The notes under the pieces: generated by a model
What the model was told of the DNA's origin: nothing
What the model saw: only the letters and a program-made list of their open reading frames with translations
Database searches by the model: none
Assembly (NCBI RefSeq): GCF_007748075.1
Contig: NZ_CP036280.1
Span: 570,001 to 602,000 of the forward strand
Origin: Mucisphaera calidilacus
GTDB taxonomy: Bacteria > Planctomycetota > Phycisphaerae > Phycisphaerales > Phycisphaeraceae
DNA length: 32,000 bases
Reading direction: 5' to 3'
Position numbers and translations under genes: made by a program
In this document: positions 4,581-32,000 of the stretch, piece by piece
Layout: the number at the start of each line of letters is the position of its first letter
Numbering within the stretch: position 1 is the first letter of the stretch

Positions 4581-4599
4581 AACAGATGATCTGTGCGCA
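4581..4599. promoter_or_regulatory. operator candidate AACAGATGATCTGTGCGCA (contains the 13-nt palindrome ACAGAT-g-ATCTGT) just downstream of a TAGAAT -10-like box (4571-4576)
   Basis: It is 17/19 identical to 29151-29169. It lies about 90 nt upstream of the first sulfatase operon. Confidence 0.5.
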
Positions 4600-4687
4600 T
4601 GGTTGTGCACCGCTCATCCCCATCACGCCGTCGTCTTTCGAGCTCACGCAACGGCTCGAAACACCGACCAGTCCAAGGGGAATCGCG

Positions 4688-6253
4688 ATGCCCGAGTCTC
4701 AACGCCCCAACATCCTCCTGCTGATGACCGATCAGCAGCGGCACGACACCGTGGCCGCCCTCGGCAACAACACCATCAAAACTCCCTCCCTCGACCGGCT
4801 CTGCGCCGAAGGAACCGCCTTCACGCGCGCCTACTCGCCCACACCCGTCTGCGTCGCCGCCCGCTGCGCACTCATGACCGGCAAGCCCGCTCACGAGACA
4901 GGCTGCTACGACAACACCGACCAGCCTCAGGACGTCCCGAGCTTCGCCGAGGTCCTCGCCGACGCCGGCTACCAGACCCACGCCGTCGGCAAGATGCACT
5001 TCACGCCCGACCCCCACCGCATGTGGGGCTTCCAGTCCCGCGACGTCTCCGAAGAGGGCTGGGAAACCGAGCCCAACGACGATTTCCGCAACTACGTCCG
5101 CGACCAGGGCTACGACCACGTCAGCGCCTTCCAGGGCATCCGCAGCGAGTTCTACTACGTCCCCCAGCCCTCGCAGCTGCCCGCACGCCACCACCACACC
5201 CACTGGACCGTTGACCGCAGCATCGACTTTCTCAAACGTCGCGACACGTCCCGCCCCTTCCTTCTCAAGACCAGCTTCATCAAGCCCCATCCGCCCTTCG
5301 AGAACCCCGAGCCGTGGAGCCGCCTCTACCGCGGCCCGCAGATGCCCGCGCCCTTCACGCCCGAGACGGGCGACGAACTGACCACCTACTGGAATCGCGT
5401 CCAGAATCGCTACAAGTATGGCGACGCGGGCAACGACGGCTACCTCGAACGTCTCCGAGTCGCCGCCTATTACGCCAACATCAGCTTCATCGACCAGCAG
5501 GTCGGACGCCTTCTCGATGCCCTCGGCGACGAACGCGACAACACCATCGTCATCTACTTCGCCGACCACGGCGAGTTCCTTGGCGACTACGGCTGCTACG
5601 GCAAACGCACCATGCAGGACGCCGCCAGCCGTATCCCGATGATCGTCCGCATGCCCGGACGCGTCCCCGCCGGACAGCAGGTCACCCGGCCCGCCACCAT
5701 CCTCGACATCTTCCCCACCCTCCTCGACGCCGCGGGGATCTCATCGGACAAGCCCTCCGACGAGGGCGAGAGCCTCATCGACCTCGCCAACGACAACTGC
5801 CAACGCGACGTCGTCTTCTCGCAGTTCCAGATGGCCGAGTACGGCCTCTACATGGCCGTCAGCGAGAACGACAAGTACGTCTACTCCGCACCCGACCGCC
5901 GCGAGATCTACGTCGACGACAAGACCGATCCCCGCGAGACACGCAACGCCATCAACGTCCCCGGCAACGACCGGCGCGCCGCCTACCTCCGCCAGAAACT
6001 CATCGACCGCCACTCCCGCGCCAACGACACCTACGCCGTCACCGACGGCCGCTGGCGTCAATACCCGCCCGTCACCTTCGACAGCACGCCCGACCGCGGC
6101 CTGCTCTACCAGGACAACCCCGCGCTCCAGGCCGCCATCGACGACCTCGGACCCGGCTACGCCCGCGACGTCACCACCACCGATGGCGTTGCCATGTCCC
6201 TGCTCTGCCCCGAAACCAGCTACCCGCCCGTTGAAGAAGAACCCGCGTCATGA
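4688..6253 (+). CDS. formylglycine-dependent sulfatase, C-x-A-x-R variant, no signal peptide
   Basis: 'NILLLMTDQQRHD' metal-binding N-terminus and 'PTPVCVAARCALMTGK' active-site box. The ATG at 4688 is preceded by AGGGG. The track's 4586 start would place the operator-like element at 4581-4599 inside the CDS. Confidence 0.9.
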   Translation: MPESQRPNILLLMTDQQRHDTVAALGNNTIKTPSLDRLCAEGTAFTRAYSPTPVCVAARCALMTGKPAHETGCYDNTDQPQDVPSFAEVLADAGYQTHAVGKMHFTPDPHRMWGFQSRDVSEEGWETEPNDDFRNYVRDQGYDHVSAFQGIRSEFYYVPQPSQLPARHHHTHWTVDRSIDFLKRRDTSRPFLLKTSFIKPHPPFENPEPWSRLYRGPQMPAPFTPETGDELTTYWNRVQNRYKYGDAGNDGYLERLRVAAYYANISFIDQQVGRLLDALGDERDNTIVIYFADHGEFLGDYGCYGKRTMQDAASRIPMIVRMPGRVPAGQQVTRPATILDIFPTLLDAAGISSDKPSDEGESLIDLANDNCQRDVVFSQFQMAEYGLYMAVSENDKYVYSAPDRREIYVDDKTDPRETRNAINVPGNDRRAAYLRQKLIDRHSRANDTYAVTDGRWRQYPPVTFDSTPDRGLLYQDNPALQAAIDDLGPGYARDVTTTDGVAMSLLCPETSYPPVEEEPAS

Positions 6254-7686
6254 GCACCCAACGCCCCCACATCATCATCCTCTGCCCCGACGAGATGCGT
6301 GCCTCCGCCGTCGCCGCCTGGGGCAACCCCGCCGTCGCCACGCCCAGCATAGACGGCCTCGCCGCACGATCGATCAAGTTCGACCGCGCCTTCACCAACC
6401 ACACCAAGTGCACACCCTCACGCTGCAGCTTCCTCACCAGCCAGTACCCCCACGTCGGCGGACACCGCACCCTCGACATGCCCGTCCGCGCCCACGAGGT
6501 CAACCTCGTCCGCTACCTCAGGGAGAACTACGGCTACCGCACCGCGCTCGTCGGCAAGAACCACTGCGTCGACGACGAGACCCAGCAACTCACCTTCGAC
6601 TTCCGCGGACGCGGCGAGGGCGGCGACGGCTACCTCGACCCCTACGAAGAAACCGGCATGCCCACCGGCAGCTACTACGTCGGTAAGGACCCCCGTAAGC
6701 TCAGCGAGCACGGCGACTACACCTCCACCACCATGGCCATCGACTGGCTCCGCGACGAGATCAACGACGACCCCGACACCCCCAGACTCCTCTGGCTCAA
6801 CTGGGACCACCCCCACTGCCCCTACCGCGCGCCCGAGCCGTTCCACGGCATCACGCCTCGCGACAAGGTCCCCGATGCCATCCCGCCCATACCCGAGTTC
6901 GAGCCGCTCTCCCACACCACACTCCGCGAGGCCTATGGCGTCGCCGACATGACCCCCGAGCAGTGGCGCGAACTCCACGCCGTCTACCTCGACATGACCA
7001 CCATGGTCGATGCCGACGTCAAACGCGTCCTCGACACCGTCGAACAACTCGGCATCGCCGACAACACCATCATCGTCTTCTGGTCCGACCACGGCGACTT
7101 CGCGGGCGACTACGGCCTGCCCGAAAAATGGGACACCTGCTTCAGCGACAACCTCGTCCACGTCCCGCTCATCATCCACGCCCCCAACACCGACGCCTCC
7201 GCCTACAACGGACTTACCGAGACCATCGATATCCTCCCCACCGTCCTCGACCTCGCCGGCATTCCCGCGCCGGGCGGCATCCAGGGCCGAAGCCACCGCG
7301 ACGCCATCCGCGGCAACACCGACCAGCCCGTGCGCGACGTCGTCTTCACAGAGGGCGGCCAGGAACCCGAGCTGCTCGAACGCGTCACGCCCGTCGACGC
7401 ACGCCCGCGACCCTGCCAGGCCTACCTCATGAAGCAGCAGGCCCTGGTCAACGAGCCGCAGATCAACCTCCGCAGCAAGATGATCCGAGGCGACCGCTAC
7501 AAGTACGTCGCACGACTCGACGGCGACGAACAGCTCTTCGACCTCGAGAACGACCCGCACGAACACCACGACCTCGCCAGGTCAGGCGACGCCGAAGACA
7601 TCCTCAACACCATGCGCCGACGCATGATGCTCAAGCTCATGGAAGCCGAGAACAACGACCCCGATCAGGATTACCTCGACTCCTGA
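6250..7686 (+). CDS. sulfatase (C-T-P-S-R type), no signal peptide
   Basis: 'HTKCTPSRCSFLTSQYP' signature plus 'IVFWSDHGDFAGDYG'. The start overlaps the upstream stop (ATGA), so it forms an operon with 4688..6253. Confidence 0.9.
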   Translation: MSTQRPHIIILCPDEMRASAVAAWGNPAVATPSIDGLAARSIKFDRAFTNHTKCTPSRCSFLTSQYPHVGGHRTLDMPVRAHEVNLVRYLRENYGYRTALVGKNHCVDDETQQLTFDFRGRGEGGDGYLDPYEETGMPTGSYYVGKDPRKLSEHGDYTSTTMAIDWLRDEINDDPDTPRLLWLNWDHPHCPYRAPEPFHGITPRDKVPDAIPPIPEFEPLSHTTLREAYGVADMTPEQWRELHAVYLDMTTMVDADVKRVLDTVEQLGIADNTIIVFWSDHGDFAGDYGLPEKWDTCFSDNLVHVPLIIHAPNTDASAYNGLTETIDILPTVLDLAGIPAPGGIQGRSHRDAIRGNTDQPVRDVVFTEGGQEPELLERVTPVDARPRPCQAYLMKQQALVNEPQINLRSKMIRGDRYKYVARLDGDEQLFDLENDPHEHHDLARSGDAEDILNTMRRRMMLKLMEAENNDPDQDYLDS

Positions 7687-7694
7687 ACCCGCAC

Positions 7695-9038
7695 TCAGTG
7701 CAACGCGTCGACGGGGGCGATCACCATCGTCTCCGGCGCGACCCACGAGCCATCCATCGTGTCGTCCGTCTCCGCTCGCCACGCGTCCATCTGCCCACGC
7801 AGGTCGTCCGCCACCGCGCGATAGCCCGGGTCATCGATCCGGTTCACCAGCGCCGTCGGGTCAAACAGCAGGTCGAACAACGCCTCCTCCTCCTGCGCCT
7901 GCTCCGGCCAGCCGCCGGCCACGAGCCGTGACTTGCTCACGCTCCGGTCGCAGTTGGGCAGCACCGGGTGGTCGTGCGTGATCAGCCGCCGGATGTAGAG
8001 ATAACGATCCGTGCGCACCGAACGCGCCGGCTCCACGCACACGTGCACGTTCGTCTCGCAGAAGACCGAATCGCGGTGATGATCCTCGGCAGCGGCATCA
8101 CTCAGCAACGCCTCAAACCCGCTGCCACGGCTCCACGACGGCACCGCCACGCCCGCCATCGCGCAAAGCGTCGCAGCAACATCGATGTGACTCACCAACG
8201 CATCACGCACCACGCCCTCCGCGACACCCGGACCTCGCATCATCAGCAGCACGCCCGTGCCCTGGTCGCTGAGCGTCCCCTTCATCCGCGGAAACGCGAT
8301 CCCGTGGTCCGTCGTGATGATCACGATCGTCCGGCCCGCATGACCCGAACGCTCCAGCGCATCAAAGATCCGGCCGTAATAACCGTCCAGACGCTGCGCC
8401 GACAGACAGTAATCCGCGATGTCCTCGCGCGTCTCAGGCGTGTCCGGCAGGGGGGTGGGCACCGCGACGTAACGACCGTCGCCCTCCGGCCGCTTCGAGT
8501 TGCTGTGCCACGCGACCTCCTCATCACCTCGCTCCGTCTTGCCCGTCCGGTGCGTCACGAAGAATCCAGCGTCGAGAAAAAAGGGCCTGCTGCCATCCTG
8601 TTCCGAAAGAAAAGCCTCCACCGCCGGGGCCACTTCCTCGTCACGCTCGATCGCGCCCGCGGCCGACGCGGTCAGGTCCCGCTCGTACCCGTAAGCCCCG
8701 TGGTTCGTGCGCGCATCCATGACGTGCTCAAGCCCCGCGATGGCCGTCGCGTATCCCGCCTCACGCAGCACCGCCGGCAGCATCTGGCTCGGATCATTCA
8801 ACCTCGCCCCACGGTGCGTCAGGCCGAGCATCCCGTTCTCGTGCGGATAACGGCCCGTCAGCATCGCAGCACGGCTTGGCGAACACGTCGGTCCCACGCA
8901 GAACGCGCGACGAAAAACCGTCCCCTGCTCCGCAAAACGCTGCAGCGCGGGCGTCGCGACCGCGTGCCCGTAAGGCTGGATCATCCGCCCCGTGTCGTGG
9001 CTGTGCAGATAAACAATGTTCGGGCGATCCGTGGCCAT
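7695..9038 (-). CDS. sulfatase (C-S-P-S-R type), no signal peptide
   Basis: 'NIVYLHSHDTGR', 'GPTCSPSRAAMLTGRYPHENG' and 'IITTDHG'. It starts 3 nt downstream of the preceding minus-strand sulfatase. Confidence 0.9.
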   Translation of the reverse strand: MATDRPNIVYLHSHDTGRMIQPYGHAVATPALQRFAEQGTVFRRAFCVGPTCSPSRAAMLTGRYPHENGMLGLTHRGARLNDPSQMLPAVLREAGYATAIAGLEHVMDARTNHGAYGYERDLTASAAGAIERDEEVAPAVEAFLSEQDGSRPFFLDAGFFVTHRTGKTERGDEEVAWHSNSKRPEGDGRYVAVPTPLPDTPETREDIADYCLSAQRLDGYYGRIFDALERSGHAGRTIVIITTDHGIAFPRMKGTLSDQGTGVLLMMRGPGVAEGVVRDALVSHIDVAATLCAMAGVAVPSWSRGSGFEALLSDAAAEDHHRDSVFCETNVHVCVEPARSVRTDRYLYIRRLITHDHPVLPNCDRSVSKSRLVAGGWPEQAQEEEALFDLLFDPTALVNRIDDPGYRAVADDLRGQMDAWRAETDDTMDGSWVAPETMVIAPVDALH

Positions 9039-9041
9039 GAC

Positions 9042-10421
9042 CTACTCCCAGATAACCCGCGTGAACTCGTTGTGAAGCGGGTCGCCGATCGACGACATCC
9101 ACGAACCCATCCCCGCACGAAGCCGCCGCAGCGGCTCCGCGCACGACGCGTCATCGATCCGGTTCACCAGCTCGCCCGGGTCCGCGTCCAGGTCGTAGAA
9201 CTCGTCCTGCGCCGTCGCGTTCCAGACGTACTTCCAACGCTTGTCCCGCGCCATCCGCTCGCTGTACAGGCCGAACTGACAACCCTGATACTGGCTGAAG
9301 GCCATCTCACGCTCCGCCACCTCGCCACGCAGCAGCTTCGACAGGTCCACGCCCTCGTAGTGCTCCGGCACGTCGATGCCCGCAGCGACCAGCAGACTCG
9401 TCGCCAGGTCCAGCTCGTGGTGCACGAACGCGTCGCACACCCGACCCGGCTCGGTCACGCCCGGCCAACGCATCATCATCGGCACGCGCAGCACGTCGTC
9501 GTACATCATGAAGTGCTTGTCCATCATGCCGTGCCCGCCGCACAGGTCGCCATGGTCCGTCGAGTAGACCACCACCGTGTTCTCGGCCAGACCCAGACGG
9601 TCCAGCGTCTCGAGAATCATCTCGACCTGCCGGTCCAGCAGCGTGATGTCCGCCAGGTACCGGCTCACCACCGGCGCCCAGTGCTCCCACGACCACCCGT
9701 CGACGCCCCAGATCCGCTGCTGACGACCCTGCACCCACGGCTTGCCCGCCAACCCGTCCGCAAAACTCGGCCACGGCTCGATCTTCTCCGGCGGGTACAG
9801 GTCCTTCATCGCCGGCGGGATCATGTTCGGCAGGTGCGGCTCCGACGGGTCCCAACGCACGAAAAACGGCGCGTCACGCTCCGAAAACTTCTCGATGCAA
9901 CGAACCGCGTGACGACCACCCCACGCCACCCGGTGCTGCTCCGGCGTGATCGCCTCGTCAATCTCACCGAACCACCCGTTCTTCCGCACACGCTCCGGCA
10001 GACCCTGCTCCGCACGCCACGCGTCGTACCCACGCTCCTCCGGGATGTACTCCTCCATCCCCCAGCTGTCCGGCTCGCCGGGCGTCTCGCCATGCCACTT
10101 GCCGATGTGCGCCGTGCTGTATCCCGCCTCCACCAGCAACTTCGGCATCAGCGGGCCCTCCGGCTTGTCGATCGGTCGGTAGATCTCCGTCGGCGGGATG
10201 CTCATGCACCCGTGCTGCGTCGGCCACTGCCCCGTGATCAGACACCCGCGCGCCGGCGAACAGATCGGCGCCGGCGTGAACGCGTGCGAAAAATCCACAC
10301 CCTCCCGGCACAACCGGTCCATCCCAGGCGTCTGCAACAGGCCGTGCCCGTGCGCGCCCACACAGTCATAACGATGCTGATCCGAGTGAATCAACACGAT
10401 ATTCATACGCTCGCCCGGCAT
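9042..10421 (-). CDS. sulfatase (C-S-P-A-R type), no signal peptide
   Basis: 'MNIVLIHSDQHRYD', 'PAPICSPARGCLITGQWP' and 'VVYSTDHGDLCGGHG'. I prefer the start at 10421 (MPGERMNIV...), which has GAGAGG 7 nt upstream. The 10472 start would overlap the upstream gene. Confidence 0.9.
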   Translation of the reverse strand: MPGERMNIVLIHSDQHRYDCVGAHGHGLLQTPGMDRLCREGVDFSHAFTPAPICSPARGCLITGQWPTQHGCMSIPPTEIYRPIDKPEGPLMPKLLVEAGYSTAHIGKWHGETPGEPDSWGMEEYIPEERGYDAWRAEQGLPERVRKNGWFGEIDEAITPEQHRVAWGGRHAVRCIEKFSERDAPFFVRWDPSEPHLPNMIPPAMKDLYPPEKIEPWPSFADGLAGKPWVQGRQQRIWGVDGWSWEHWAPVVSRYLADITLLDRQVEMILETLDRLGLAENTVVVYSTDHGDLCGGHGMMDKHFMMYDDVLRVPMMMRWPGVTEPGRVCDAFVHHELDLATSLLVAAGIDVPEHYEGVDLSKLLRGEVAEREMAFSQYQGCQFGLYSERMARDKRWKYVWNATAQDEFYDLDADPGELVNRIDDASCAEPLRRLRAGMGSWMSSIGDPLHNEFTRVIWE

Positions 10422-10431
10422 CACAAACCTC

Positions 10432-12180
10432 TCAATCCTGCGCGGCCAACAACCGAACCCGTGCGACGCCATGGTTCGGCGACTCGCACTCCTTCAACTC
10501 ATAAAGATAAACATCCTCCGGCGACTGTGTCGGCCAGCGGAACGTCGTCTTCGGGTCCACCTCACGGTCCGACTTGAGAATCACACGGTGACCCTCGCCC
10601 GAACCCGGCAACCCCAGCAGGTGATCCACCTGACCCGATGTCACAAAACCACCCTCAACCGAGGCGCTCACCCCGACGTCCTCGTCACGATGGCGGTGCG
10701 TCAGCAGCCACGGCCCCAGGAACAGGTTCACCTCGTCCCCCGCTCTCGCCGTCTTCATCCAGCGAGGCGCCACGCCCCGCGACGCTGGCCAGATCCGATA
10801 TCCGTAACGCACCGTCACCACGCCCTCGCCCGCCACCTTCAATTCCGTCCAGTAGATCTCATCACCCCCCGCGTCCGGCTGACCCTCCAGCTTCATCCAG
10901 AAAGGCGTCGCGATCCGGATCGACCGAATCGTCACGCCGCCCTTGAGCACGATCCGCAACTCGCCCACGTGATCGTCGCGCTCGATCACCACCTGCTGCT
11001 CGCCGAACACAAACGTCCCGCTCACCGGGTGCAGGATCGTCAGCGTCTCGCCGTCGCACCGAACCATCTGCCCCGCGCCCGCGATCAGGCCATACGGACC
11101 AAACAGCGAGCAGCACCACGGCGCTTCCTTGCCCATCTGCGCGTAATACCCCTCGAGGTCCACGCTCCCGAAACCCCCGTTGTAGGTCTGGTTGTAGAAA
11201 ATCTGGTTCTCGAGGTTCAGGATCGAACGACGCAGCCACCGCTCATGGCCCGTCGCGTCGTACATGCCGAGCGTCAGCAGGTGCCAGTCAAACAGCGAGC
11301 ACCCCTCGTCAACCAGCTCCCAGGTCTCGTCCGGCTTCACCAGCCGCTCGGGAATACCACCCGTCTCCATCACCCACAGGTCATGGAACCGATCCAACTC
11401 CGACGCCAAATCGTCAATCGCCGCCTTGTCGCCTCGCTCGCGGTAGTACGCCAGCATCCCGCGACGCGTCATCAGATACATATGCGAGTGATCCGCCTCC
11501 TCCAGTGGCGTCACGTGCTCAATCATCTCACCCGCCAGCGACAGGTAACGCTCGTCACCCGTCAGCCGGTAAAGCGTCATCACACCGTCCAGGCCGTGAT
11601 AGAAACAGCTCACCGTCGAGGCGTACCCCCGCGAGATCGTCTCGCCCTGATCCCACGCGTGCCACGCCGGCGCGATCCGCAGGTAGCACTCACCCAACGC
11701 CTTGACCGCCTCCGTCACCGCCGGGTCGCCGAACGTCAACGCGTACTGCCCCAACGCCTTGAGCGTCCACCCATTGCCGTACGCCTTCTCCGGGTTCAGC
11801 GGCTCGTCATCCCACGCCAGCGAACCAAAACTCCCGTCCTGGTTCTGCAGCTTCAGCATCCCCGCCACCACACCCGCCAGGTGCTCGGGAGGCGACGCCT
11901 CCCCGCTGTACACATGCGTCTCCGCCAGGATCCACCGGCCCGCGATGTCACCATGAAACCGCGGGAAATTCGACCAGCACCCCGGCTCCGCACACACCTG
12001 CGTCAGCAGATATTGCTCGCAGTAGGGCACCTGGCTCTCGATCCGGTCGATCGACCGCCCCAGCCGATACCCCATCTCGCCGCTCAACTGAAATCGCGTC
12101 GGGCTCCCCTTCGGCATGGCCAGGGAGCTCGTGCCGAACCAGAGCGTCGGGGCGTGCGTGATATCGCGGATACTCTTCAT
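10432..12180 (-). CDS. GH127/DUF1680-like glycoside hydrolase (beta-L-arabinofuranosidase / 3,6-anhydro-D-galactosidase family), no signal peptide
   Basis: 'LVDEGCSLFDW' (E-x-C) and, 62 aa later, 'APWCCSLFGP' (C-C) reproduce the Glu/Cys3 zinc and nucleophile arrangement I recall for HypBA1. The (alpha/alpha)6-like N-half includes 'GDIAGRWILAE'. I prefer the start at ATG 12180 (MKSIRD...). The 12240 start would run into the promoter region. Confidence 0.65.
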   Translation of the reverse strand: MKSIRDITHAPTLWFGTSSLAMPKGSPTRFQLSGEMGYRLGRSIDRIESQVPYCEQYLLTQVCAEPGCWSNFPRFHGDIAGRWILAETHVYSGEASPPEHLAGVVAGMLKLQNQDGSFGSLAWDDEPLNPEKAYGNGWTLKALGQYALTFGDPAVTEAVKALGECYLRIAPAWHAWDQGETISRGYASTVSCFYHGLDGVMTLYRLTGDERYLSLAGEMIEHVTPLEEADHSHMYLMTRRGMLAYYRERGDKAAIDDLASELDRFHDLWVMETGGIPERLVKPDETWELVDEGCSLFDWHLLTLGMYDATGHERWLRRSILNLENQIFYNQTYNGGFGSVDLEGYYAQMGKEAPWCCSLFGPYGLIAGAGQMVRCDGETLTILHPVSGTFVFGEQQVVIERDDHVGELRIVLKGGVTIRSIRIATPFWMKLEGQPDAGGDEIYWTELKVAGEGVVTVRYGYRIWPASRGVAPRWMKTARAGDEVNLFLGPWLLTHRHRDEDVGVSASVEGGFVTSGQVDHLLGLPGSGEGHRVILKSDREVDPKTTFRWPTQSPEDVYLYELKECESPNHGVARVRLLAAQD

Positions 12181-12208
12181 CGATGAAAACCTCTGTCTGA
12201 AAGGAAGG

Positions 12209-12362
12209 CAGATACACCCGACCCATGCCGGATCTGACACAAACCAGATTCTATGTCATAAGTCAGATCGCGTGTATCCCCCGTTTCCCCGTAGATACGC
12301 CGCAGATCTCGAACAGATATAAAACGCTGCAGAGCAGATCGTTGAATGCAATAGCATCAGAT
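12209..12362 (+). repeat. array of seven same-strand CAGAT(C/A/T/G) pentamers in the divergent GH127 / GH38 control region
   Basis: CAGAT starts at 12209, 12245, 12264, 12303, 12314, 12335 and 12358. Opposite-strand copies (ATCTG) lie at 12232-12236 and 12460-12464. Confidence 0.6.
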
Positions 12363-12624
12363 GTGTCCCGCATCGCATCCCCAGCGGCCATCCCACGCGA
12401 TCCTCCTCCCTCCCGCCTCGCGTGTCCCTCGCCCGAAACTCTCTGTCCACATTCCTTGCATCTGTCCTAAGTCAGGGGTATGCTCACCCCTCTGGAGTCA
12501 TCATGTTTTTTGTCGTCTCACGGCCTGACAGTCCATCCGAACAGACCGACCTGCCCCCGATCGCGGCCCCTGGCCGCATCAGCACCGCTCTGGTCACGAT
12601 GAGCCCGTCCGGCGAGGACCCCTC

Positions 12625-15674: not shown

Positions 15675-15680
15675 AGATAT

Positions 15681-20744: not shown

Positions 20745-20761
20745 TCACGCTCGCCTCTCCA

Positions 20762-22903: not shown

Positions 22904-22989
22904 GCCGCATAAACACCCTTGCGATGTCGTTCCGCATCCCGTGCAAGATGCCCCACGCGGACATCAGCAGGCCACGCTCATCTCACCGC

Positions 22990-24837
22990 TCAGCCCGACG
23001 CCTTGGGCGCCACACCCGAAGACCCCTTCGGATACAGCTTGTCCACGCCCACGAAGAACATCCGCAGCGACACCGCCGCCACCACGGCGCCGACGATCAT
23101 GAAGTGCCACAACGCCAGCAGAAGGCCCATGAACGCAAAGACCAGGCCCAGGATCGATCCCATCATGCTCAACGCCGTCACGCTCAACCAGAGCAGCGAG
23201 TCCGACGCGTCACGCTCCAGATCCGCCGCACGACGGATCGGCCCCCAGAAACCGAACGGACGCATCCGCTTGTAGAAAGCCACCAGCTTCTCCTTCGACT
23301 CCGGCGGGGTCAGCAGGATCACGATCACCGAGACCGTCGTGCTCGTGCACACGATCAGAAACGTCCGCAACGCCCAGAGTGTGTCGTTCGTGATCTCAAC
23401 CTCGAACCACACCAGCAACGAACGCGTCCACTCGTTCACATGCCCCGTCAGCATCAGCGTCGTGATCACCACCGAGCACGCCTGCGCCGACAACTCGCCC
23501 CAGATGTTCACACGCCACCACACGAAACGCAGCAGCTTCACCATGCCCACCGACTGAACCACGTTGATCGCGAACATGAACAGGTACAGGATGTCGTTCA
23601 CCATGAACCCGATCACCGACGCCAGCAGCGTGATGAACACCATGTACCAGCGTGAGGCCGTCACGTAGTGATGCTCGTCACGGCCCGGCGCCAGGTACGC
23701 CTTGTAAATGTCGTTCGTGAAGATCGACGTCGAGTTGTGAATGTTCGTATCGAACGAGGACATGAACGCCGACAGAAAGCCCGCCGCCATCAACCCCATC
23801 AGGCCGATCGGCATGTACTGACGCACCAGCGCCGGGAACACCATCTCGTGGTCCGCGATCGCCTGACCGTCCGGACCCACCGCCGCCGGAAACTGCTCCA
23901 GCAGGTACGCGTCACTGATCAGGAACAACCCCGCAAGACCGCAGATGTAGTAAGGCCAGTTGCGGAACGCGAAGTTCAGGATGCCCGTGTACAACCCCGT
24001 GTAAATGACCTCACGCTCGTCCTTCAGACAGAAGCTGCGCTGGTTGTGCGGGTTGTAGTTCCCCTGCTCCATGATCGCGAACACGATGTAGAAGATCAGC
24101 ACCCAGATCACCGTTGGCATCAGCGATAACAGCTTCTCCGAGTCGGCGTGGCTCTCCAACGCCGTCCGCAGACCGATCGGACCACCCATGTCAATGAAGA
24201 TAAACGTCAACAGCATGTAGGTCGCGAACAACGCCACCAGCACCTCGAACAGGTCCGTCCACACCACACCGTGCACGCCCGAGGCCGCCGAATAAACAAG
24301 CGTCACCAAAATCAGGACCGCGATGATCACGATGCTCGTGTCCATCGTCATGCCGAGAAACAGGAAGTCAGGCGGCAGGCCAAGCAGCACCGTCACCACC
24401 TTCTTCATACCCACCAGGCCGATCGCCGCCCACATCGCGGCCACGATGATCCCGTACAGCACCGAGTCGAACGTCCGCGCCACGTCCGCGCCACGCCCGT
24501 GATAACGCGCGTGATAAAACTCCATCTGTGTCACGAACGCCGCACGACGCCAGAGCCGGACGAAAAACACCGACGAGATCGCCATCGTGAAGATGCTCCG
24601 CCACGTGAACCACAGCCCACCCAGACCGTCCTGGCGGATCTTCCGCGAGTCCGAAAGCATCGTCGACGCGTTCAAACCTGTCGCCAGAACCGACGCGCCC
24701 GCCAGCCACCACGGCATCTTCCGGCCCGCCAGAATGAACTCGTCCGTGTTGCTGCCCGCACGCTTCGCGAGCTTCGCGCCCAGAACAAGCAGACCGACCA
24801 TGAAACTGACCACGACGGTCCAGTCAATCCAGTGCAT
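22990..24837 (-). CDS. sodium:solute symporter (SSS/SSF) family permease
   Basis: 615 aa, polytopic. The N-terminus 'DWTVVVSFMVGLLVLGAKLAKRAGSNTDEFILAGRKMPWWLAGASVLAT' is the typical SSF TM1-TM2 region. It lies 24 nt downstream of the preceding minus-strand gene, with a GAAGGA Shine-Dalgarno sequence. Confidence 0.85.
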   Translation of the reverse strand: MHWIDWTVVVSFMVGLLVLGAKLAKRAGSNTDEFILAGRKMPWWLAGASVLATGLNASTMLSDSRKIRQDGLGGLWFTWRSIFTMAISSVFFVRLWRRAAFVTQMEFYHARYHGRGADVARTFDSVLYGIIVAAMWAAIGLVGMKKVVTVLLGLPPDFLFLGMTMDTSIVIIAVLILVTLVYSAASGVHGVVWTDLFEVLVALFATYMLLTFIFIDMGGPIGLRTALESHADSEKLLSLMPTVIWVLIFYIVFAIMEQGNYNPHNQRSFCLKDEREVIYTGLYTGILNFAFRNWPYYICGLAGLFLISDAYLLEQFPAAVGPDGQAIADHEMVFPALVRQYMPIGLMGLMAAGFLSAFMSSFDTNIHNSTSIFTNDIYKAYLAPGRDEHHYVTASRWYMVFITLLASVIGFMVNDILYLFMFAINVVQSVGMVKLLRFVWWRVNIWGELSAQACSVVITTLMLTGHVNEWTRSLLVWFEVEITNDTLWALRTFLIVCTSTTVSVIVILLTPPESKEKLVAFYKRMRPFGFWGPIRRAADLERDASDSLLWLSVTALSMMGSILGLVFAFMGLLLALWHFMIVGAVVAAVSLRMFFVGVDKLYPKGSSGVAPKASG

Positions 24838-27199: not shown

Positions 27200-27225
27200 A
27201 AAAACCCCGGGCAACACGCCCGGGG
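27200..27225 (-). terminator. intrinsic terminator after the small PEP-CTERM gene (minus strand: CCCCGGGC-gtgtt-GCCCGGGG-TTTTT)
   Basis: An 8-bp all-GC stem, a 5-nt loop and a T5 tract on the minus strand. It lies 15 nt after the stop at 27240 and 28 nt before ATG 27171. Confidence 0.7.
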
Positions 27226-27239
27226 CATCAAAGTCTTCA

Positions 27240-27911
27240 TCAACGACGACGCATCCCGCAAAGCCCCAGCAGCGCCAGACCCGCGGCCAGGCTGCTCGGC
27301 GTCGGAACCGGAGCGGCTTCAAAGGTCACGAAGCGCGGGCGGTACTTCGTTTCGGGGCCGGCGGCCATGATCAGCTTCTCGCCAGCGGCGAGGACGGTGT
27401 TCGCGTTGAAGCTGTATTCGATCTTGCCGTTGCCGCCACCCGGGATCACGAGCGACGCTGCACCGATCGATACGTCGATGGATTCGCCGTCACCAAGGAG
27501 CGTCACCGCGGTCGAGGTCAGCGTCACGTCGATCGGGTTCATCGCGCTGTCGAAGAACGAGAAGGCGATGGCCTCGTCGTAGACCTGGCCGTTGCCAGTG
27601 TTGATCTGATCGATAGCGCCCCCGTCGTCGCCACCGACATTCGGGCCAGTTGAGTTGATGCCCGCGCCATTGTTGCCGCCACCACCATTGTTGGTCAGAT
27701 CGACCGTGCCCCCGACGTTCAGCGCATTGCCGAGGGCTTCGACGACGACCTTCACACTCGGGTCGGGGGTCAACGTGACGGACGGCTGGCCGTCACCCGT
27801 AACGAGGCCCGCATACTCGCTGCCCGAAATCAGGCTGACCTCCATCGTCGCGCCAAGCGACGCCGAAGCCGCAAAACACCCAACCAGAGCACACTGCGTT
27901 AAACGAATCAT
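27240..27911 (-). CDS. small secreted Gly/Asn-rich PEP-CTERM protein (V-P-T-P variant)
   Basis: ATG 27911 is preceded by a perfect AAGGAGG, so the track's 28004 start is rejected. Signal peptide ends ...AASASLGA. The C-terminus is 'VPTPSSLAAGLALLGLCGMRRR'. Confidence 0.75.
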   Translation of the reverse strand: MIRLTQCALVGCFAASASLGATMEVSLISGSEYAGLVTGDGQPSVTLTPDPSVKVVVEALGNALNVGGTVDLTNNGGGGNNGAGINSTGPNVGGDDGGAIDQINTGNGQVYDEAIAFSFFDSAMNPIDVTLTSTAVTLLGDGESIDVSIGAASLVIPGGGNGKIEYSFNANTVLAAGEKLIMAAGPETKYRPRFVTFEAAPVPTPSSLAAGLALLGLCGMRRR

Positions 27912-28007
27912 CTCATTCCTCCTTACAAAGAAAACCAGAATGGCCAAAGTGAATCCATGACATGAAAAAACCAGATACACAAGGGCACACAGCCCTGAAA
28001 CCACAAA

Positions 28008-29138
28008 CTAAACCGAACCACGCGGGGCACCGATGCTCCCACGCTCACGCAACACAGGCTGCAACTGCACCGACCGATACGTCGGCTGATCGCCCTCGAT
28101 CAACTGCTGCAGCAGAAACACCGACCGCCGTCCGATCGCTTCCGTCGGGCGATCCAGCATCGTGATCCCCTGATCCATCAGACCAAGACCCTCCATGTCG
28201 CCGCCCATCCCCACGATCGACAAGTCCTCCGGCACACGGATCCCCCTGCGACGAGCCGCCAGCAACGCACCCGCCGCACGGTTCGGCGTCACCGCCACCA
28301 ACGCCGTCAACTCCGGATAACGCTCCAGAATCACCTCCGCCGTCCGAATCCCGTCCTCAAACGGGTTCTCGCCATCCAGCGTCGCGGCATTGCCCTCGAC
28401 CACCGGCACGTCGCTCAGCTTCCGACCAATCTCCGCCAGCGCCGACCCCATCCCCAGTCGAAGCTCGCCACTCGTCCGTGCGTCCGTGTTGTTGTCCAGG
28501 ACCCCGATCTGGCGATGACCCGCGTCCGTCAGCAACGCGATCGCCTGACGACCCATCTCAAACTCGTCCGTCACCACCGCCGGGGCGCTGTTGCTCTCGT
28601 CCACCGTGATCAGCGACTGCACACAGGGCAAACCACGCTCACGCAACGTCTGAATCGCCTCCGCGTAGCGCTTGAAAGGCGGCGGCACGATGATCACACC
28701 CGAAACAAACGCACGGTCCAGACGCGACAGAATGTTCATCTGCTCGTCGAAATTCGCCTCCGCGGCCTCGATCACCAGACGGTAATGCGTCCCCGATAAA
28801 CCATCGTGAACGCCCTTCATTAAACGCGTCACGTAATGCGAGCAGACCATCGGCAGCAGCAGGGCAATATCGTGCACTTTGAAGTCCGGTTTCGAGACGA
28901 AAACACCGCGGCGGGCATCCACACGCAGGTAACCGTCCGCCGTCAGGTCGTTGATCGCCTGGCGAACCACCGCCATGCTCACCGACATCTCCTCGCTCAA
29001 CTGACGCATGCTCGGCAACTGCTCGCCGTGACCGATCAACTCTCCCTCGATGTGCTCCCGGAGCACATCATGCACCTGTCGCGCAAGCGAAACAGGCTTA
29101 TTCGGATCAATCACGGCGTGAAAACGAGCCTTAGACAT
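28008..29138 (-). CDS. AraR-type chimeric regulator (GntR winged-HTH + LacI/PBP1 sugar-binding domain), copy 2
   Basis: 'LPSMRQLSEEMSVSMAVVRQAINDLTADGYLRVDARRGVFV' followed by 'DIALLLP...SGVIIVPP...GHRQIGVL'. It aligns along its whole length with 15681..16814, at roughly one third identity by eye. Confidence 0.85.
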   Translation of the reverse strand: MSKARFHAVIDPNKPVSLARQVHDVLREHIEGELIGHGEQLPSMRQLSEEMSVSMAVVRQAINDLTADGYLRVDARRGVFVSKPDFKVHDIALLLPMVCSHYVTRLMKGVHDGLSGTHYRLVIEAAEANFDEQMNILSRLDRAFVSGVIIVPPPFKRYAEAIQTLRERGLPCVQSLITVDESNSAPAVVTDEFEMGRQAIALLTDAGHRQIGVLDNNTDARTSGELRLGMGSALAEIGRKLSDVPVVEGNAATLDGENPFEDGIRTAEVILERYPELTALVAVTPNRAAGALLAARRRGIRVPEDLSIVGMGGDMEGLGLMDQGITMLDRPTEAIGRRSVFLLQQLIEGDQPTYRSVQLQPVLRERGSIGAPRGSV

Positions 29139-29145
29139 CCACCTA

Positions 29146-29173
29146 ACTATAACAGATCAACTGTGCGCAGCAA
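29146..29173 (-). promoter_or_regulatory. sigma70-like promoter of regulator 2 (minus strand): TTGCTG-16 nt-TATAGT, with the -10 ending 7 nt before the ATG
   Basis: The minus strand reads ttgctg-cgcacagttgatctgt-tatagt-taggtgg-ATG. The 16-nt spacer is the operator candidate. Confidence 0.4.
29151..29169. promoter_or_regulatory. operator candidate AACAGATCAACTGTGCGCA in the divergent regulator-2 / sulfatase-5 intergenic region
   Basis: It is 17/19 identical to 4581-4599 and contains ACAG-N5-CTGT. It fills the spacer of the predicted minus-strand promoter of regulator 2. Confidence 0.5.
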
Positions 29174-29312
29174 TACTTTTCACCACAATCAGCCCACGCC
29201 GCGCACAGATCGACCCCCAACCGCTATTCTGAGAGCACAGAATCCCGTGTGACTGAATCAGACACCATAAATTACCCAGCTTAAACACACCATCACCCCT
29301 GGCAGACTCGAA

Positions 29313-30770
29313 ATGAACAAAGATCATCCGAACATCCTCTACATCTTTGCCGACGACTGGGGCTATGGCGACATCTCCTGCCTCAACCCCGACTCCAAAA
29401 TCCACACCCCCTGCACCGACAAGCTCGCCGAGCAGGGCATGACCTTCACCGACGCCCACAGCAGCTCGGCCGTCTGCACGCCCAGCCGGTACAGCGTCCT
29501 CACCGGAAGATACTGCTGGCGCGGACCCCTCAAGTCCAGCGTCCTCGGCGGATGGGACGAACTGCTCATCGAGGACGACCGAATGACCGTCGCCTCGCTC
29601 CTCCGCGACAAGGGCTACCGGACCGCCTGCATCGGCAAGTGGCACCTCGGACTCGGATGGCACCACAACACACAGCCCCCCACAAGACACAACGGCTTCT
29701 ACGAGTGGAACGACGATCGCATCGACGTCGACTTCACCAAAACACTCACCAAGGGACCCCACACCGTCGGTTTCGACGTCTCCTTCATCATCCCCGCATC
29801 ACTCGACATCGTCCCCTACTGCTTCATCGAGAACGGACACGTCCACGACCTGCCCATGCGACACGTCGAAGACTCGCCCCGACCCGCCGAGTACCGAGGC
29901 GGACCCTGCGCACGCGGACTCCAGCACGAGACCGTCCTCCTCGAGTTCACCAACCGCGCCGAACAGTTCATCGCCGACCACGCACGCGAGTCCCCCGACA
30001 AGCCCTTCTTCCTCTACCTCCCGCTCCCCTCGCCGCACACCCCCCACGTCCCCCGCGAACCCTTCCAGGGCACCAGCGAATGCGGCGCCTACGGCGACTA
30101 CGTCGTCGAGCACGACTGGTCCATCGGACGCGTCCTCGAAACACTCGAACGATCCGGACTCGCCGACGACACACTCGTCATCGTCACCTCCGACAACGGT
30201 GCCCACATCCGCGGACAGGGCATGAAGGCCGACATGCCCTTCGACTTCGAGCAGCAGTACGGACATCGCTCCAACCACATCTACCGCGGACAGAAAACCG
30301 ACGCGTGGGACGGCGGGCACCGAATCCCCTACATCGCTCGATGGCCAGGCGTCATCGAACCCGGATCCACCTGCGACCACCCCATCTGCCTCACCGACCT
30401 CCTCGCCACCGTCGCCGAACTCCACGGCGAAGACCTGCCCGACGACGCCGGCGAAGACAGCCTCTCCACGCTCCCGCTCATGCACCAGCAACAACCCGGC
30501 AGCGGACGACAGGCCATCGTGCACCACAGCGGAGGCGGCGAATTCGCCATCCGGCAAGGCAACTGGAAACTCATCGACTGCCCCGGCTCAGGCGGGTGGT
30601 CCATGCCCCCCGGCAAGGTCCCCGACGACGCGCCACCACGACAACTCTACAACCTCGACAACGACATCGAAGAACAACACAACCTCATCGGACAACACCC
30701 CGACGTCGAACAACGACTCCTCACGCTCCTCGATCAGTACAAGACCAACAACCGGAGCGTCGACCGCTGA
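29313..30770 (+). CDS. arylsulfatase-A-like sulfatase (C-T-P-S-R type), no signal peptide
   Basis: 'NILYIFADDWGYGD', 'SSAVCTPSRYSVLTGRY', 'GKWHLG' and 'VIVTSDNG'. Confidence 0.9.
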   Translation: MNKDHPNILYIFADDWGYGDISCLNPDSKIHTPCTDKLAEQGMTFTDAHSSSAVCTPSRYSVLTGRYCWRGPLKSSVLGGWDELLIEDDRMTVASLLRDKGYRTACIGKWHLGLGWHHNTQPPTRHNGFYEWNDDRIDVDFTKTLTKGPHTVGFDVSFIIPASLDIVPYCFIENGHVHDLPMRHVEDSPRPAEYRGGPCARGLQHETVLLEFTNRAEQFIADHARESPDKPFFLYLPLPSPHTPHVPREPFQGTSECGAYGDYVVEHDWSIGRVLETLERSGLADDTLVIVTSDNGAHIRGQGMKADMPFDFEQQYGHRSNHIYRGQKTDAWDGGHRIPYIARWPGVIEPGSTCDHPICLTDLLATVAELHGEDLPDDAGEDSLSTLPLMHQQQPGSGRQAIVHHSGGGEFAIRQGNWKLIDCPGSGGWSMPPGKVPDDAPPRQLYNLDNDIEEQHNLIGQHPDVEQRLLTLLDQYKTNNRSVDR

Positions 30771-30851
30771 CCACAACACCACCCCGAGGCCCGCGCATCA
30801 GCCAGACCCCGCCCACAGAATCCCGCATCGATCTCTAGCGATGCCGACGGC

Positions 30852-32000
30852 TCACGCGTACGACGACCCACCCTCTTCGCCACGCTCCGCACGGGCCTTC
30901 TTCCGCTCACGCCCGAGCTGCTTGATCACGCCGCTCTTCCGCAGCGCCGCCAACGGGTCCTTCTCCAGTTTCTGACCCTTCCGCCACGCCTCCAGCGCAG
31001 GCGATACGTCGGTATCAAACGCCGACTTGAGCAGCACCTCCGCGCCCGTGATGTCCCCCTTCGCCTGCGCCCTGGCCAACGCCTCGCGGTCCACAATCTG
31101 CGCCTTCACAAAAAGCTTCTGCGCCTCGCACACCGTCTGCACCATCGCCTCGAGCTTCGGCTTGAGGTTGTGCGACTGGTCCACCATGTAATCCACAGGC
31201 GTCGAGCCCGGCGCCTTCTTCGCTTCGAACTCAAACTGCGCAATCTCGTTGAAGATCCGGAACACCGCATAAGGATCGATGCTCCCCAGCGTCAGGTCGT
31301 CGTCCGCGTACTTGCGATCGTTGAAGTGGAACCCGCCCAGACGGCCCTCGTTCAGCAGCAACGCCACGATCTGCTCGATGTTGCAGCCCGGCAGGTGATG
31401 CCCCGTGTCCACCAGAACCTTCGCCTGCGGACCCGCGTGCTGACACAGCAGCAGCGACGCACCCCAGTCCGGAATGTCCGTGTGATAGAACGCCGGCTCG
31501 AACGGCTTGTACTCGATCAGCAGCTTCGCCCCACGCCACGAACGACCCATCTTCAGGTGCAGCTGCTTCATCGCATCCTTCAGATCGTTGAAACGCCGAC
31601 GGATGTTGTCCTGTCCCGGGTAGTTCGTCCCGTCCGCCAGCCACATCGAGATCGACTTCGAACCCACCGCCGCACCCAGCGCGACCGAGTCCAGCGTGTG
31701 ATCCATCGCCGACTGACGCGCCGAAGCATCCGGCGAGCAGAACGAACCGAGCTTGTACGCCTGGTCCTGGAACACGTTCGGGTTGATGCTCCCGATCTTC
31801 ACGCCGTGCTTCCGCGCCAGACGCCGGGTCGTCTTCGCAGAAGCAGGGTCGGTCGGATCATCAAAGTCCCACAGCACATGCACCGCCACCGTCGGGCACG
31901 CGCCCGTCAACGCGTTCACCAGACCCGCGTCGTGCAGCTTCTCCTCCAGCGTCGAGGCCGCCGCGTCCTGCATGAACTTCCCGAAACGCGTCCCGGTGTT
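30852..32000 (-). CDS. L-rhamnose isomerase, xylose-isomerase-like TIM-barrel type (N-terminus beyond window)
   Basis: The ORF stays open to nt 32000 (...NTGTRFGKFMQD...). 'INPNVFQDQAYKLGS', 'MWLADGTNYPGQDN' and 'VDTGHH' match my recollection of Pseudomonas stutzeri/Rhizobium-type L-RhI. No alignment was run. Confidence 0.65.
   Translation of the reverse strand, partial: NTGTRFGKFMQDAAASTLEEKLHDAGLVNALTGACPTVAVHVLWDFDDPTDPASAKTTRRLARKHGVKIGSINPNVFQDQAYKLGSFCSPDASARQSAMDHTLDSVALGAAVGSKSISMWLADGTNYPGQDNIRRRFNDLKDAMKQLHLKMGRSWRGAKLLIEYKPFEPAFYHTDIPDWGASLLLCQHAGPQAKVLVDTGHHLPGCNIEQIVALLLNEGRLGGFHFNDRKYADDDLTLGSIDPYAVFRIFNEIAQFEFEAKKAPGSTPVDYMVDQSHNLKPKLEAMVQTVCEAQKLFVKAQIVDREALARAQAKGDITGAEVLLKSAFDTDVSPALEAWRKGQKLEKDPLAALRKSGVIKQLGRERKKARAERGEEGGSSYA

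Follow-up and report, generated by a model that had tools for sequence, protein, structure and literature searches.

A stretch of 32,000 nucleotides (nt) from Mucisphaera calidilacus Pan265 (Phycisphaerae; CP036280; G+C 64%), hereafter the window, holds between positions 4581 and 32000 what its sequence identifies as a genuine, regulated glycan-utilisation locus without SusC/D, the neighbourhood of which is partly conserved in relatives. We propose, with slightly better than even confidence, that this 27-kb island is a regulated catabolic unit for a sulfated marine heteroglycan, built from two modules that are each headed by an AraR-type regulator, and relying on external cutting by GH51-like enzymes, import by a sodium:solute symporter (SSS) and desulfation in the cytoplasm. 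Module A, under Reg1, would comprise a GH127/GH146-like glycosidase (GH127L), a GH38 enzyme, a DUF1559 pseudopilin, the small protein p156, two concanavalin-like PEP-CTERM proteins and the surface-sorted PEP659. Module B, under Reg2, would comprise a small PEP-CTERM protein, the secreted protein unk769, the SSS permease and the sulfatase Sulf5, and Sulf2, Sulf4 and an L-rhamnose isomerase are placed in it by synteny. From these genes we infer the enzyme activities and a flow of material from the outside inwards. Two GH51-like retaining glycosidases outside the cytoplasmic membrane would cut the polymer into small, still-sulfated sugars, while exosortase-sorted lectin-fold proteins, and possibly a pseudopilus, would hold it in place; a vSGLT-like SSS permease would then bring the products into the cytoplasm, where five signal-peptide-less Cys-type S1 sulfatases would strip the sulfate esters, GH38 and GH127L would complete hydrolysis, and L-rhamnose isomerase would pass the released 6-deoxyhexose to central metabolism.

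Gene inventory and absence of a SusC/D system

Genes were told from spurious frames by the G+C content of their codon positions and annotated with Pfam and NCBIfam, and 18 genes were counted in 4581–32000. An earlier reading of this DNA (the original prediction) had given a figure of 24 proteins, which fits approximately the whole window. Every gene type listed in that prediction was recovered, although not always as a gene of its own, as one of the GH-A-like hydrolases and one of the dockerin-bearing PEP-CTERM proteins are the same gene, PEP659. The claim that the window encodes no TonB-dependent receptor, no SusD and no ABC importer also held. No predicted protein of the window carries a SusC, SusD or TonB-receptor domain (Plug, TonB_dep_Rec) by Pfam or NCBIfam, tblastn with Galbibacter SusC and SusD as queries returned no match in the window at E ≤ 1e-3, and neither an ABC signature nor a Walker A motif occurs in any of its six frames. 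The published description of strain Pan265 gives counts of carbohydrate-active enzymes (CAZymes) only and does not mention the locus (PMC8882080).

The loci used for comparison come from two Planctomycetota metagenome-assembled genomes (MAGs; L081 and L086), a Phycisphaeraceae MAG (L169), the verrucomicrobial genus Lentimonas (L083) and the Bacteroidota strain Galbibacter sp. BG1. Orthologues of 14 of the 18 genes, counting positional counterparts for the pseudopilin and the small PEP-CTERM protein PEP254, cluster with one another in other genomes, so the co-localisation is not due to chance.

Five sulfatases without export signals

The five sulfatases all belong to the S1 family and have no signal peptide. 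Sulf1 (4586–6253, + strand; PF00884, E 4e-54) carries the variant motif C-V-A-A-R (CVAAR), is 30% identical to Escherichia coli YidJ and probably starts at the ATG at 4688 (MPESQRPNILLL); its stop codon is overlapped, in ATGA, by the start of Sulf2 (6250–7686, + strand; CTPSR). Sulf3 (7695–9038, − strand; CSPSR) closes the gene run GH127L–Sulf4–Sulf3, the middle member of which (Sulf4; 9042–10472, − strand; CSPAR) likely starts near 10421. Sulf5 (29313–30770, + strand; CTPSR) is S1_15-like. PF00884 was matched by all five at E 1e-35 to 1e-54 (122–184 bits against a cut-off of 25), and a Cys-type motif C-x-(P/A)-x-R lies near each N-terminus. The solved structure nearest to Sulf5 is the BT N-acetylgalactosamine (GalNAc)-6-O-sulfatase 6s20 (E 9e-83), followed by 7oze and S1_15A/B, and its nearest relatives are exported Bacteroides S1_15 galactose (Gal)/GalNAc-6-O-sulfatases. 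Naming the substrate from the sulfatases was dropped, since Sulf2 and Sulf4 have no close relative among solved structures and only Sulf5 leads to a subfamily, S1_15; ulvan, carrageenan, fucoidan, sulfated rhamnan or sulfated mannan are all possible.

The sulfatases cannot carry a signal peptide because their open frames leave no space for one: the sulfatase domain starts within the first 6–41 residues in all five, and the frames reach at most 4–14 codons further upstream. When the N-termini were read including this upstream frame, no hydrophobic stretch was found in the five sulfatases, GH38 or GH127L. The Sulf2 and Sulf4 orthologues of two Planctomycetota MAGs and the Sulf4 orthologue of Lentimonas likewise start straight at the catalytic domain, whereas all sulfatases of the Galbibacter polysaccharide utilisation locus (PUL) begin with signal or lipoprotein peptides, the Sulf5 orthologue (40% identity) with a lipoprotein signal. 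The lack of signal peptides in the sulfatases, GH38 and GH127L, a trait that the sulfatases keep in their Planctomycetota MAG and Lentimonas orthologues, gives good support to a model in which desulfation would take place in the cytoplasm after SSS import, as had been predicted originally.

Predicted cytoplasmic glycosidases, rhamnose isomerase and importer

GH38 (12625–15447, + strand), an alpha-mannosidase-family enzyme without a signal peptide, matches the N, middle and C domains of the family, each above its cut-off (PF01074, 87 bits; PF09261, 52 bits; PF07748, 59 bits). Among NCBIfam models it comes closest to mannosylglycerate hydrolase, with 368 bits, below the cut-off of 1138. GH127L (10432–12240, − strand; the deposited protein begins at M21, 10432..12180) is a divergent GH127/GH146-like six-hairpin glycosidase, predicted to be cytoplasmic and apparently in one operon with Sulf4 and Sulf3. 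Its own PF07944 score of 21.9 bits is under the cut-off of 24.9, and PF07944 is carried by 50 of its 53 homologues (the query's own record apart). E292, C294, C356 and C357 are invariant in 29 sequences, and the profile of these 29 members matches the GH146 structure 5opj (E 6e-8), with Glu-x-Cys and Trp-Cys-Cys aligned to ETC and WCC.

The predicted L-rhamnose isomerase gene (RhaI; 30852–32000, − strand; TIGR02635) is cut by the window end, with about 21 N-terminal residues lying beyond it, and the truncated protein covers model positions 22–378 of 378 and scores 435.9 bits (cut-off 531). Rhamnose in the substrate is hinted at by its presence. As claimed in the original prediction, a single secondary importer is encoded, an SSS permease of the sugar-transporter branch (22990–24837, − strand; PF00474, 99 bits), the nearest solved relative of which is the Vibrio Na+/galactose carrier vSGLT (2xq2, E 2e-24).

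Two probable secreted GH51-like enzymes

Unk769 (24862–27171, − strand), a secreted protein of 769 residues, begins with a hydrophobic stretch and an N-terminal beta-sandwich, which precede a GH51-like TIM barrel and a C-terminal sandwich. PEP659 (20866–22845, + strand) combines a signal peptide, a GH51-like clan GH-A domain (approximately residues 21–526), a double dockerin and a PEP-CTERM signal, and is a putative surface-sorted glycosidase. No Pfam or NCBIfam family was found for unk769 even at E ≤ 5, and PEP659 gave only a weak Glyco_hydro_cc match (E 0.029) and none to a GH51 model of these databases. Residues 318–508 of unk769 match GH51 arabinofuranosidases of the PDB (4atw; E 5e-6). 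An AlphaFold (AF2) model of unk769, made from 38 homologues, had a predicted local distance difference test (pLDDT) score of 86, and Foldseek on this model ranked GH51 first (E 1e-18, TM-score about 0.6 on the target), directly ahead of GH79. When the family profiles of unk769 and PEP659 were aligned by hhalign, the probability was 100% (E 1.5e-43, 439 columns). The acid/base glutamate in N-E (E426 in unk769, E171 in PEP659) and the nucleophile in T-E-F/Y-N (E568 and E304, respectively) are invariant.

As these clan GH-A hallmarks are invariant in both families, we read unk769 and PEP659 as probable catalytically competent retaining glycosidases that would act outside the cytoplasmic membrane, and depolymerisation very probably starts there. 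The division of labour in the original prediction, with binding outside and degradation inside, is thereby altered: desulfation inside stands, but an exterior devoted to binding alone does not fit two secreted GH51-like enzymes with invariant glutamates. Like the GH51 alpha-L-arabinofuranosidases and GH79 enzymes, this family has a (beta/alpha)8 barrel with a C-terminal beta-sandwich, an N-E acid/base and a nucleophile Glu after strand 7. It differs from them in having no Pfam or NCBIfam match to these families and only 14–17% identity to solved structures, in the extra N-terminal sandwich of unk769, and in the dockerins and PEP-CTERM signal of PEP659. This GH51-like family is uncharacterised and is a new element.

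Members of the PEP659-domain family occur in Microbulbifer agarilyticus and Simiduia agarivorans, and M. calidilacus itself has two more paralogues. The notion that both GH51-like families are extremely rare (38 and 14 matches) was dropped when a metagenome pattern scan gave at least 260 relatives of unk769. The closer ones (L089, L092, L116 and L117) adjoin sulfatase, ADP-ribosylglycohydrolase-like or SusC/D genes, and rarity and the link to sulfatases are traits of the close unk769 subfamily only. An ADP-ribosylglycohydrolase-family gene (PF03747), absent from the window, accompanies this close subfamily and sulfatases in seven loci of Planctomycetota, Bacteroidota and metagenomes (L081, 4026–5519; L084, 15501–17429; L086, 5880–7430; L089, L092, L116 and L117), and it may encode an unrecognised glycan-active enzyme of the same pathway.

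Conservation of the neighbourhood and modularity

L081 carries orthologues of RhaI (80% identity) and Sulf2 (60%) together with the ADP-ribosylglycohydrolase-like gene, divergent from Reg2 (58%), a small PEP-CTERM gene, a DUF1559 pseudopilin gene, unk769 (51%) and Sulf4 (63%); its RhaI orthologue lies in a codirectional run with that of Sulf2. L086 brings together Sulf2 (60%), unk769 (55%), PEP659 (45%), GH38 (45%), Reg1 (40%), the SSS permease (59%), a pseudopilin and PEP-CTERM proteins, and its PEP659 orthologue adjoins GH38. L169 has GH127L (60%), GH38 (60%), Reg1 (75%) and a fragment resembling PEP659; no sulfatase gene lies within 10 kb of them. Lentimonas (L083) keeps the SSS permease (45%), Sulf4 (43%), unk769 (37%) and Sulf2 (46%) together. 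Galbibacter sp. BG1 has an unk769-like gene, the Sulf5 orthologue (40%) and further sulfatases between SusC/SusD pairs, and an orthologue of Sulf3 (30%).

The neighbourhood is thus partly conserved in L081, L086, L169 and L083. The single unit of the original prediction was not seen as such: the island combines two modules, each headed by a regulator, and other genomes have one without the other. For synteny, GH38 served poorly as an anchor, and the unusual proteins served better. In L086 the unk769 orthologue (7535–9834) is split into open reading frames of 305 and 409 residues, and in L169 the PEP659-like gene (16448–17263) is a C-terminal fragment of 271 residues; frameshifts, errors of assembly or gene decay could account for both.

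Regulators and candidate operators

Reg1 (15681–16814, + strand) and Reg2 (28008–29138, − strand) both have the AraR architecture, a GntR helix-turn-helix (PF00392) joined to a LacI-type sugar-binding domain (PF13377/PF00532). The hexamer ACAGAT is present in 12 copies in 4493–32000, eight of them intergenic, where 0.9 would be expected in the 2.1 kb of such DNA (binomial p 4.5e-7, not significant family-wise). The intergenic copies fall two each in exactly four regions, namely upstream of Sulf1, in the GH127L–GH38 divergent region, upstream of Reg1 and in the Reg2–Sulf5 divergent region. As a shared promoter-region element for co-regulation the hexamer is suggestive only. One copy is contained in a perfect palindrome, ACAGATgATCTGT (4582..4594), a candidate operator upstream of Sulf1. 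The Reg2–Sulf5 divergent region has a site with one mismatch to the palindrome, ACAGATcAACTGT (29152..29164), 14–26 nt upstream of the Reg2 start, and a site with two mismatches, ACAGATGAACTGA, stands at the equivalent place just upstream of the Reg2 orthologue of L081. As a general motif the palindrome failed: ACAGATnATCTGT with up to three mismatches was observed 8 times against 5.5 expected, not above chance. The sites with no or one mismatch and the distribution of half-sites are suggestive.

The divergent control region between GH127L and GH38 (12181..12624) has ACAGAT at 12313 and 12460, and contains the block TTGCATCTGTCCTAAGTCAGGGGTA, a 30-nt block upstream of GH38 (starting TTGCATCTGTCCTAAGTCAG) that is identical at 24 of 30 positions upstream of the GH38 orthologue of L169. 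By our own reading, −35/−10-like pairs precede both regulators (Reg1, TTGACA-N16-TATAAC, 15640–15683; Reg2, TTGCTG-N16-TATAGT, 29139–29185) and end 6–7 nt before the start codon, which suggests leaderless or near-leaderless transcripts for Reg1 and Reg2. The Reg1 elements are conserved in L169, and an ACAGAT-type site lies inside the Reg2 spacer. A scan with the sigma-70 consensus called no promoter, and an Rfam scan found no RNA family.

Surface proteins, dockerins and pseudopilin

Strongly hydrophobic N-termini were found in the pseudopilin, p156, the four PEP-CTERM proteins and unk769. The DUF1559 pseudopilin (16915–17769, + strand) has a prepilin N-methylation motif and matches PF07963 (32.7 bits) and PF07596 (32.3 bits), both above cut-off, and TIGR02532. 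The small p156 (17822–18292, + strand), which matches no family, has an N-terminal membrane anchor or signal. PEP426 (18485–19765, + strand) consists of a signal peptide, a concanavalin-like domain, a double dockerin and a PEP-CTERM signal, and PEP270 (19932–20744, + strand) of a signal peptide, a concanavalin-like beta-sandwich and a PEP-CTERM signal; the small PEP254 (27240–28004, − strand; also delimited as 27240..27911), between Reg2 and unk769, has a signal peptide and the VPTPSS variant of PEP-CTERM. The PEP-CTERM C-termini, each with PEP motif, hydrophobic helix and basic tail, are VPEPASVAVLGLMAAALRRRG, IPEPASLAMLALGGIAMIRRSA, VPEPAAATLLLALAAIRRRR and VPTPSSLAAGLALLGLCGMRRR, and their Pfam scores are just below threshold; no exosortase is encoded in the window. 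Type I dockerins (PF00404; 40.8 and 42.9 bits, cut-off 22.9), two repeats in each protein, are present in PEP426 and PEP659, and no window protein has a cohesin domain.

The AF2 model of PEP270 (pLDDT 77) has the concanavalin-like lectin/glucanase sandwich, for which Foldseek returned L-type lectins (Emp47p, VIP36) and GH16 at TM-scores of about 0.45–0.5. The N-domain of PEP426 is 33% identical to PEP270, and the PEP270 family has eight cluster representatives at E < 1e-10, the query included, among 1.84e9. "Lectin-like" is reasonable for PEP270 and PEP426 at the level of the predicted fold, with glycan binding as a putative function. GH16-like catalysis was ruled out for both, which have no conserved acidic residue pair, as was homology of the PEP270 domain to the N-terminal sandwich of unk769 (hhalign probability 0.2%). 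PEP426 and PEP659 share 67% protein identity across their dockerin and PEP-CTERM modules, which are spanned by a direct repeat of 283 nt, 79% identical in DNA (19447–19729 and 22530–22812). Together with N-terminal domains that are unrelated between these proteins, this suggests that modules were recently shuffled or underwent gene conversion.

Motif scans placed PEP-CTERM and pseudopilin genes near each other in ten Phycisphaerae/Planctomycetota loci, among them a GH9-containing cassette of L081, and in none of the Chloroflexota or Firmicutes loci scanned. DUF1559 genes similar to that of the window are found in L081, L085, L086 and eight Phycisphaerae GH38 loci. Small PEP-CTERM genes adjoin the unk769 orthologues of L085 and L086, and L081 has a positional, weak sequence homologue of PEP254. 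A second cassette of L081 (16575–22292) has the same layout, with a LacI-type regulator, two small PEP-CTERM genes, a DUF1559 pseudopilin gene and a GH9 cellulase-like gene, suggesting a reusable locus design. DUF1559 genes also adjoin unrelated CAZyme loci (the GH9 cassette of L081 and Phycisphaerae GH38 loci), and they are very numerous in planctomycete genomes. In the literature searched we found nothing that links PEP-CTERM, prepilin/DUF1559 and CAZyme genes in Phycisphaerae. A far-reaching interpretation, which we offer as speculation and think unlikely to hold as a whole, is that a cassette of regulator, PEP-CTERM lectin-fold protein(s) and DUF1559 pseudopilin is the Phycisphaerae functional counterpart of SusC/SusD. 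It would be a substrate-specific capture device for each CAZyme locus, would operate on a shared type II/type IV-pilus-like machine and exosortase pathway, and would supply the players of polysaccharide 'fishing'; here it would be coupled to the uptake of sugars that still carry sulfate and are desulfated wholly in the cytoplasm.

GC-rich hairpins lie 3' of p156, PEP426, PEP270, PEP659 and PEP254 (18330–18360, 19795–19820, 20760–20790, 22878–22905 and 27204–27226, respectively). The last, between PEP254 and unk769 on the − strand (27204..27226), resembles an intrinsic terminator, with a 10-pair stem that includes eight GC pairs and is followed by TTTTT. None of the four + strand hairpins has a T-run or was called terminator-like; on that strand, poor in T, such tails would be masked.

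Weighing of alternative explanations

Several observations count against a single pathway of the kind proposed. The signal-peptide calls are our own reading of the N-termini and not those of a trained predictor, and non-classical export is possible; the window also encodes no formylglycine-generating enzyme (FGE/anSME). An SSS carrier is expected to take monosaccharides and perhaps disaccharides, a size of transported product that is awkward with two further cytoplasmic glycosidases. Linkage of the rhamnose isomerase was seen in two genomes only. The hexamer ACAGAT was found post hoc, and the top hexamer of shuffled intergenic DNA reached eight copies in 24% of shuffles. Most of the unk769-profile relatives in the metagenome scan (at least 260) are at most 33% identical and have no sulfatase nearby. 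The best 80 GH38 relatives listed are at most 44% identical and their contexts differ, so that the neighbourhood is not conserved at 30–45% identity. In L169 module A has no accompanying sulfatases, in L081 module B lacks GH38 and GH127L, and the two may serve different substrates.

If so, the island would not be a functional unit but two independent adjacent loci, module A for an unsulfated mannoside- or arabinofuranoside-type glycan and module B for a sulfated, rhamnose-containing one. This is a serious possibility, though one we doubt. It accounts for the two separate regulators, for the widely varying context of GH38 and for L169, where module A is found at 60–75% identity with no sulfatase within 10 kb, as well as for L081. 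It does not account for L086, the cluster of which mixes both modules (Sulf2, unk769, PEP659, GH38, Reg1 and SSS), and it sits poorly with the apparent operon of GH127L with Sulf4 and Sulf3, with the secreted enzymes of the two modules, unk769 and PEP659, being paralogues, and with ACAGAT in the control regions of both. A second alternative moves the cutting step inwards: a pseudopilus would pull the polymer or large oligomers through the outer membrane like a 'fishing rod', unk769 would work in an enlarged periplasm, and only the final small products would cross by the SSS permease. Unk769 indeed has a signal peptide only, with no PEP-CTERM sorting signal, a pseudopilin gene forms part of the locus and is found again next to the unk769 orthologues of L081 and L085, and type II secretion-type genes lie immediately upstream. 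On the other hand, the exosortase sorting signal and dockerins of PEP659 point to the cell surface or matrix, the window encodes no outer-membrane channel, and adjacency of a DUF1559 gene is weak evidence by itself, such genes being numerous and found beside unrelated CAZyme loci. We consider this variant, for which a hypothesis exists in the literature (PMC8882080, PMC12078418, PMC12673574), possible but rather improbable.

The two remaining alternatives separate the enzymes from the surface proteins. In one, which seems to us unlikely, the PEP-CTERM, dockerin and pseudopilin genes encode general envelope or matrix components of a mucus-forming strain and have no role in capture, so that the pathway is reduced to enzymes and transporter. 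It is favoured by the classical association of PEP-CTERM/exosortase systems with the making of exopolysaccharide and biofilms. The strain grows as a viscous colloid (PMC8882080), the window has neither cohesin nor exosortase, and the GC-rich hairpin after each PEP gene suggests separate expression. Against it, L081, L085 and L086 repeat the arrangement of small PEP-CTERM and pseudopilin genes directly next to an unk769 orthologue and following a sugar-sensing regulator, such genes also flank the unrelated GH9 cassette of L081, and one PEP-CTERM protein, PEP659, is itself a GH51-like enzyme. In the other, the cytoplasmic sulfatases, SSS permease and GH38 would scavenge small sulfated metabolites (sulfated glycosides, osmolytes or choline-sulfate-like esters), and the secreted proteins would be unrelated neighbours. 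Its model is the yidJ–yidK pair of E. coli, in which the gene of a signal-peptide-less Cys-type sulfatase overlaps an SSS carrier gene; a regulator gene adjoins it (yidJ–yidK–yidL). YidJ is 30% identical over its full length to Sulf4 and Sulf1, and YidK weakly similar to the window permease (22% over 115 residues). Among curated models, GH38 comes closest to mannosylglycerate hydrolase, and the sulfatases also match the NCBIfam choline-sulfatase model, below its cut-off. The E. coli genes are an uncharacterised pair with no secreted enzymes and an AraC-type, not AraR-type, regulator. Against scavenging, the secreted GH51-like enzyme is the conserved partner of Sulf2, Sulf4 and SSS in three phyla. 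The Bacteroidota counterparts of these enzymes are part of a SusC/D PUL, a device for polymer uptake, and the nearest relatives of Sulf5 are glycan-specific S1_15 sulfatases. We regard scavenging as quite improbable.

Relation to known systems

The proposed two-module pathway resembles the SusC/SusD PULs of Bacteroidota in its clustered, regulator-controlled CAZymes and S1 sulfatases, and the Galbibacter PUL holds relatives of the unk769 family, Sulf5 and Sulf3. It differs in having neither SusC or another TonB-dependent transporter nor SusD, with import by a secondary SSS carrier instead, in sulfatases without export signals where those of Galbibacter are exported, and in surface proteins sorted by PEP-CTERM and not as lipoproteins or by a type IX secretion system. 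Marine Verrucomicrobiota, Lentimonas among them, are on record with PUL-like clusters that lack SusCD and combine hydrolases, sulfatases and symporters (Orellana et al. 2021, PMC8857213). The original prediction knew of no description of this locus type as a unit, but the general type is already known in Planctomycetes–Verrucomicrobia–Chlamydiae (PVC) bacteria. The verrucomicrobial clusters share the co-localised glycoside hydrolases, sulfatases and symporters, and Lentimonas carries four orthologues in one cluster. The published account (PMC8857213) centres on fucosidase (GH29/95) clusters and is without the GH51-like family, the signal-less sulfatases and the cassette of regulator, PEP-CTERM and pseudopilin genes found in the window and in further Phycisphaerae loci. 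The novelty lies in the particular architecture, in the GH51-like family, which is uncharacterised, and in the recurring cassette of regulator, PEP-CTERM and pseudopilin genes. In the literature searched, no description of cytoplasmic sulfatases coupled to a transporter was found; the uncharacterised yidJ–yidK pair of E. coli is a precedent for such a coupling.

For planctomycetes, the hypothesis of pili acting as 'fishing rods' goes back to Boedeker et al. 2017 (summarised in PMC8882080, PMC12078418 and PMC12673574), and the reviews call its players unknown. As far as these summaries go, the hypothesis likewise proposes a pilin-like protein for polysaccharide capture in a SusCD-free organism, and rests on microscopy of dextran uptake in Planctomycetia; the window adds a specific pseudopilin gene, with a putative role as a glycan-binding fibre, behind a sugar-sensing regulator in a CAZyme locus. 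Sulfated algal glycans have major degraders in the Planctomycetota and their PVC relatives, which lack SusC/D, and recent reviews describe the components of their uptake systems as unknown (PMC12078418, PMC12673574). The present locus offers leads in a cultured, fully sequenced strain: regulated pseudopilin and lectin-fold PEP-CTERM genes as named candidates, an uncharacterised GH51-like family with close members tied to sulfatases across three phyla, and a testable contrast between cytoplasmic and periplasmic desulfation by related enzymes. If confirmed, these would aid the annotation of PVC glycan loci in marine metagenomes and could yield new enzymes for sulfated polysaccharides.

Upstream genes and strand composition

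The island lies directly downstream of genes resembling those of a type II secretion system (GspK-like, 3–929; GspL-like, 1441–2781), possibly the machine used by the locus pseudopilin. A TPR protein gene (ending at 3916) and a STAS anti-sigma-factor antagonist gene (4136–4492) also lie upstream of the island.

The strand read here contains 12772 C, 7781 G, 6669 A and 4778 T, and in every 2-kb stretch of the window the GC skew is approximately −0.17 to −0.31 and the AT skew +0.06 to +0.27. C makes up about 70% of third codon positions in + strand genes, and in − strand genes G mostly accounts for about 50–59% of them (33% in one gene), so the bias follows the DNA strand rather than the orientation of the genes. 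The usual replication skew is roughly 0.02–0.1, and the bias of the window is far stronger. No published report of such a strand bias was found in the literature searched. Absent from the other Phycisphaerae loci, a matching bias is present in the locus of a Mucisphaera sp. MAG (L041, 1–22739; GC skew −0.31).

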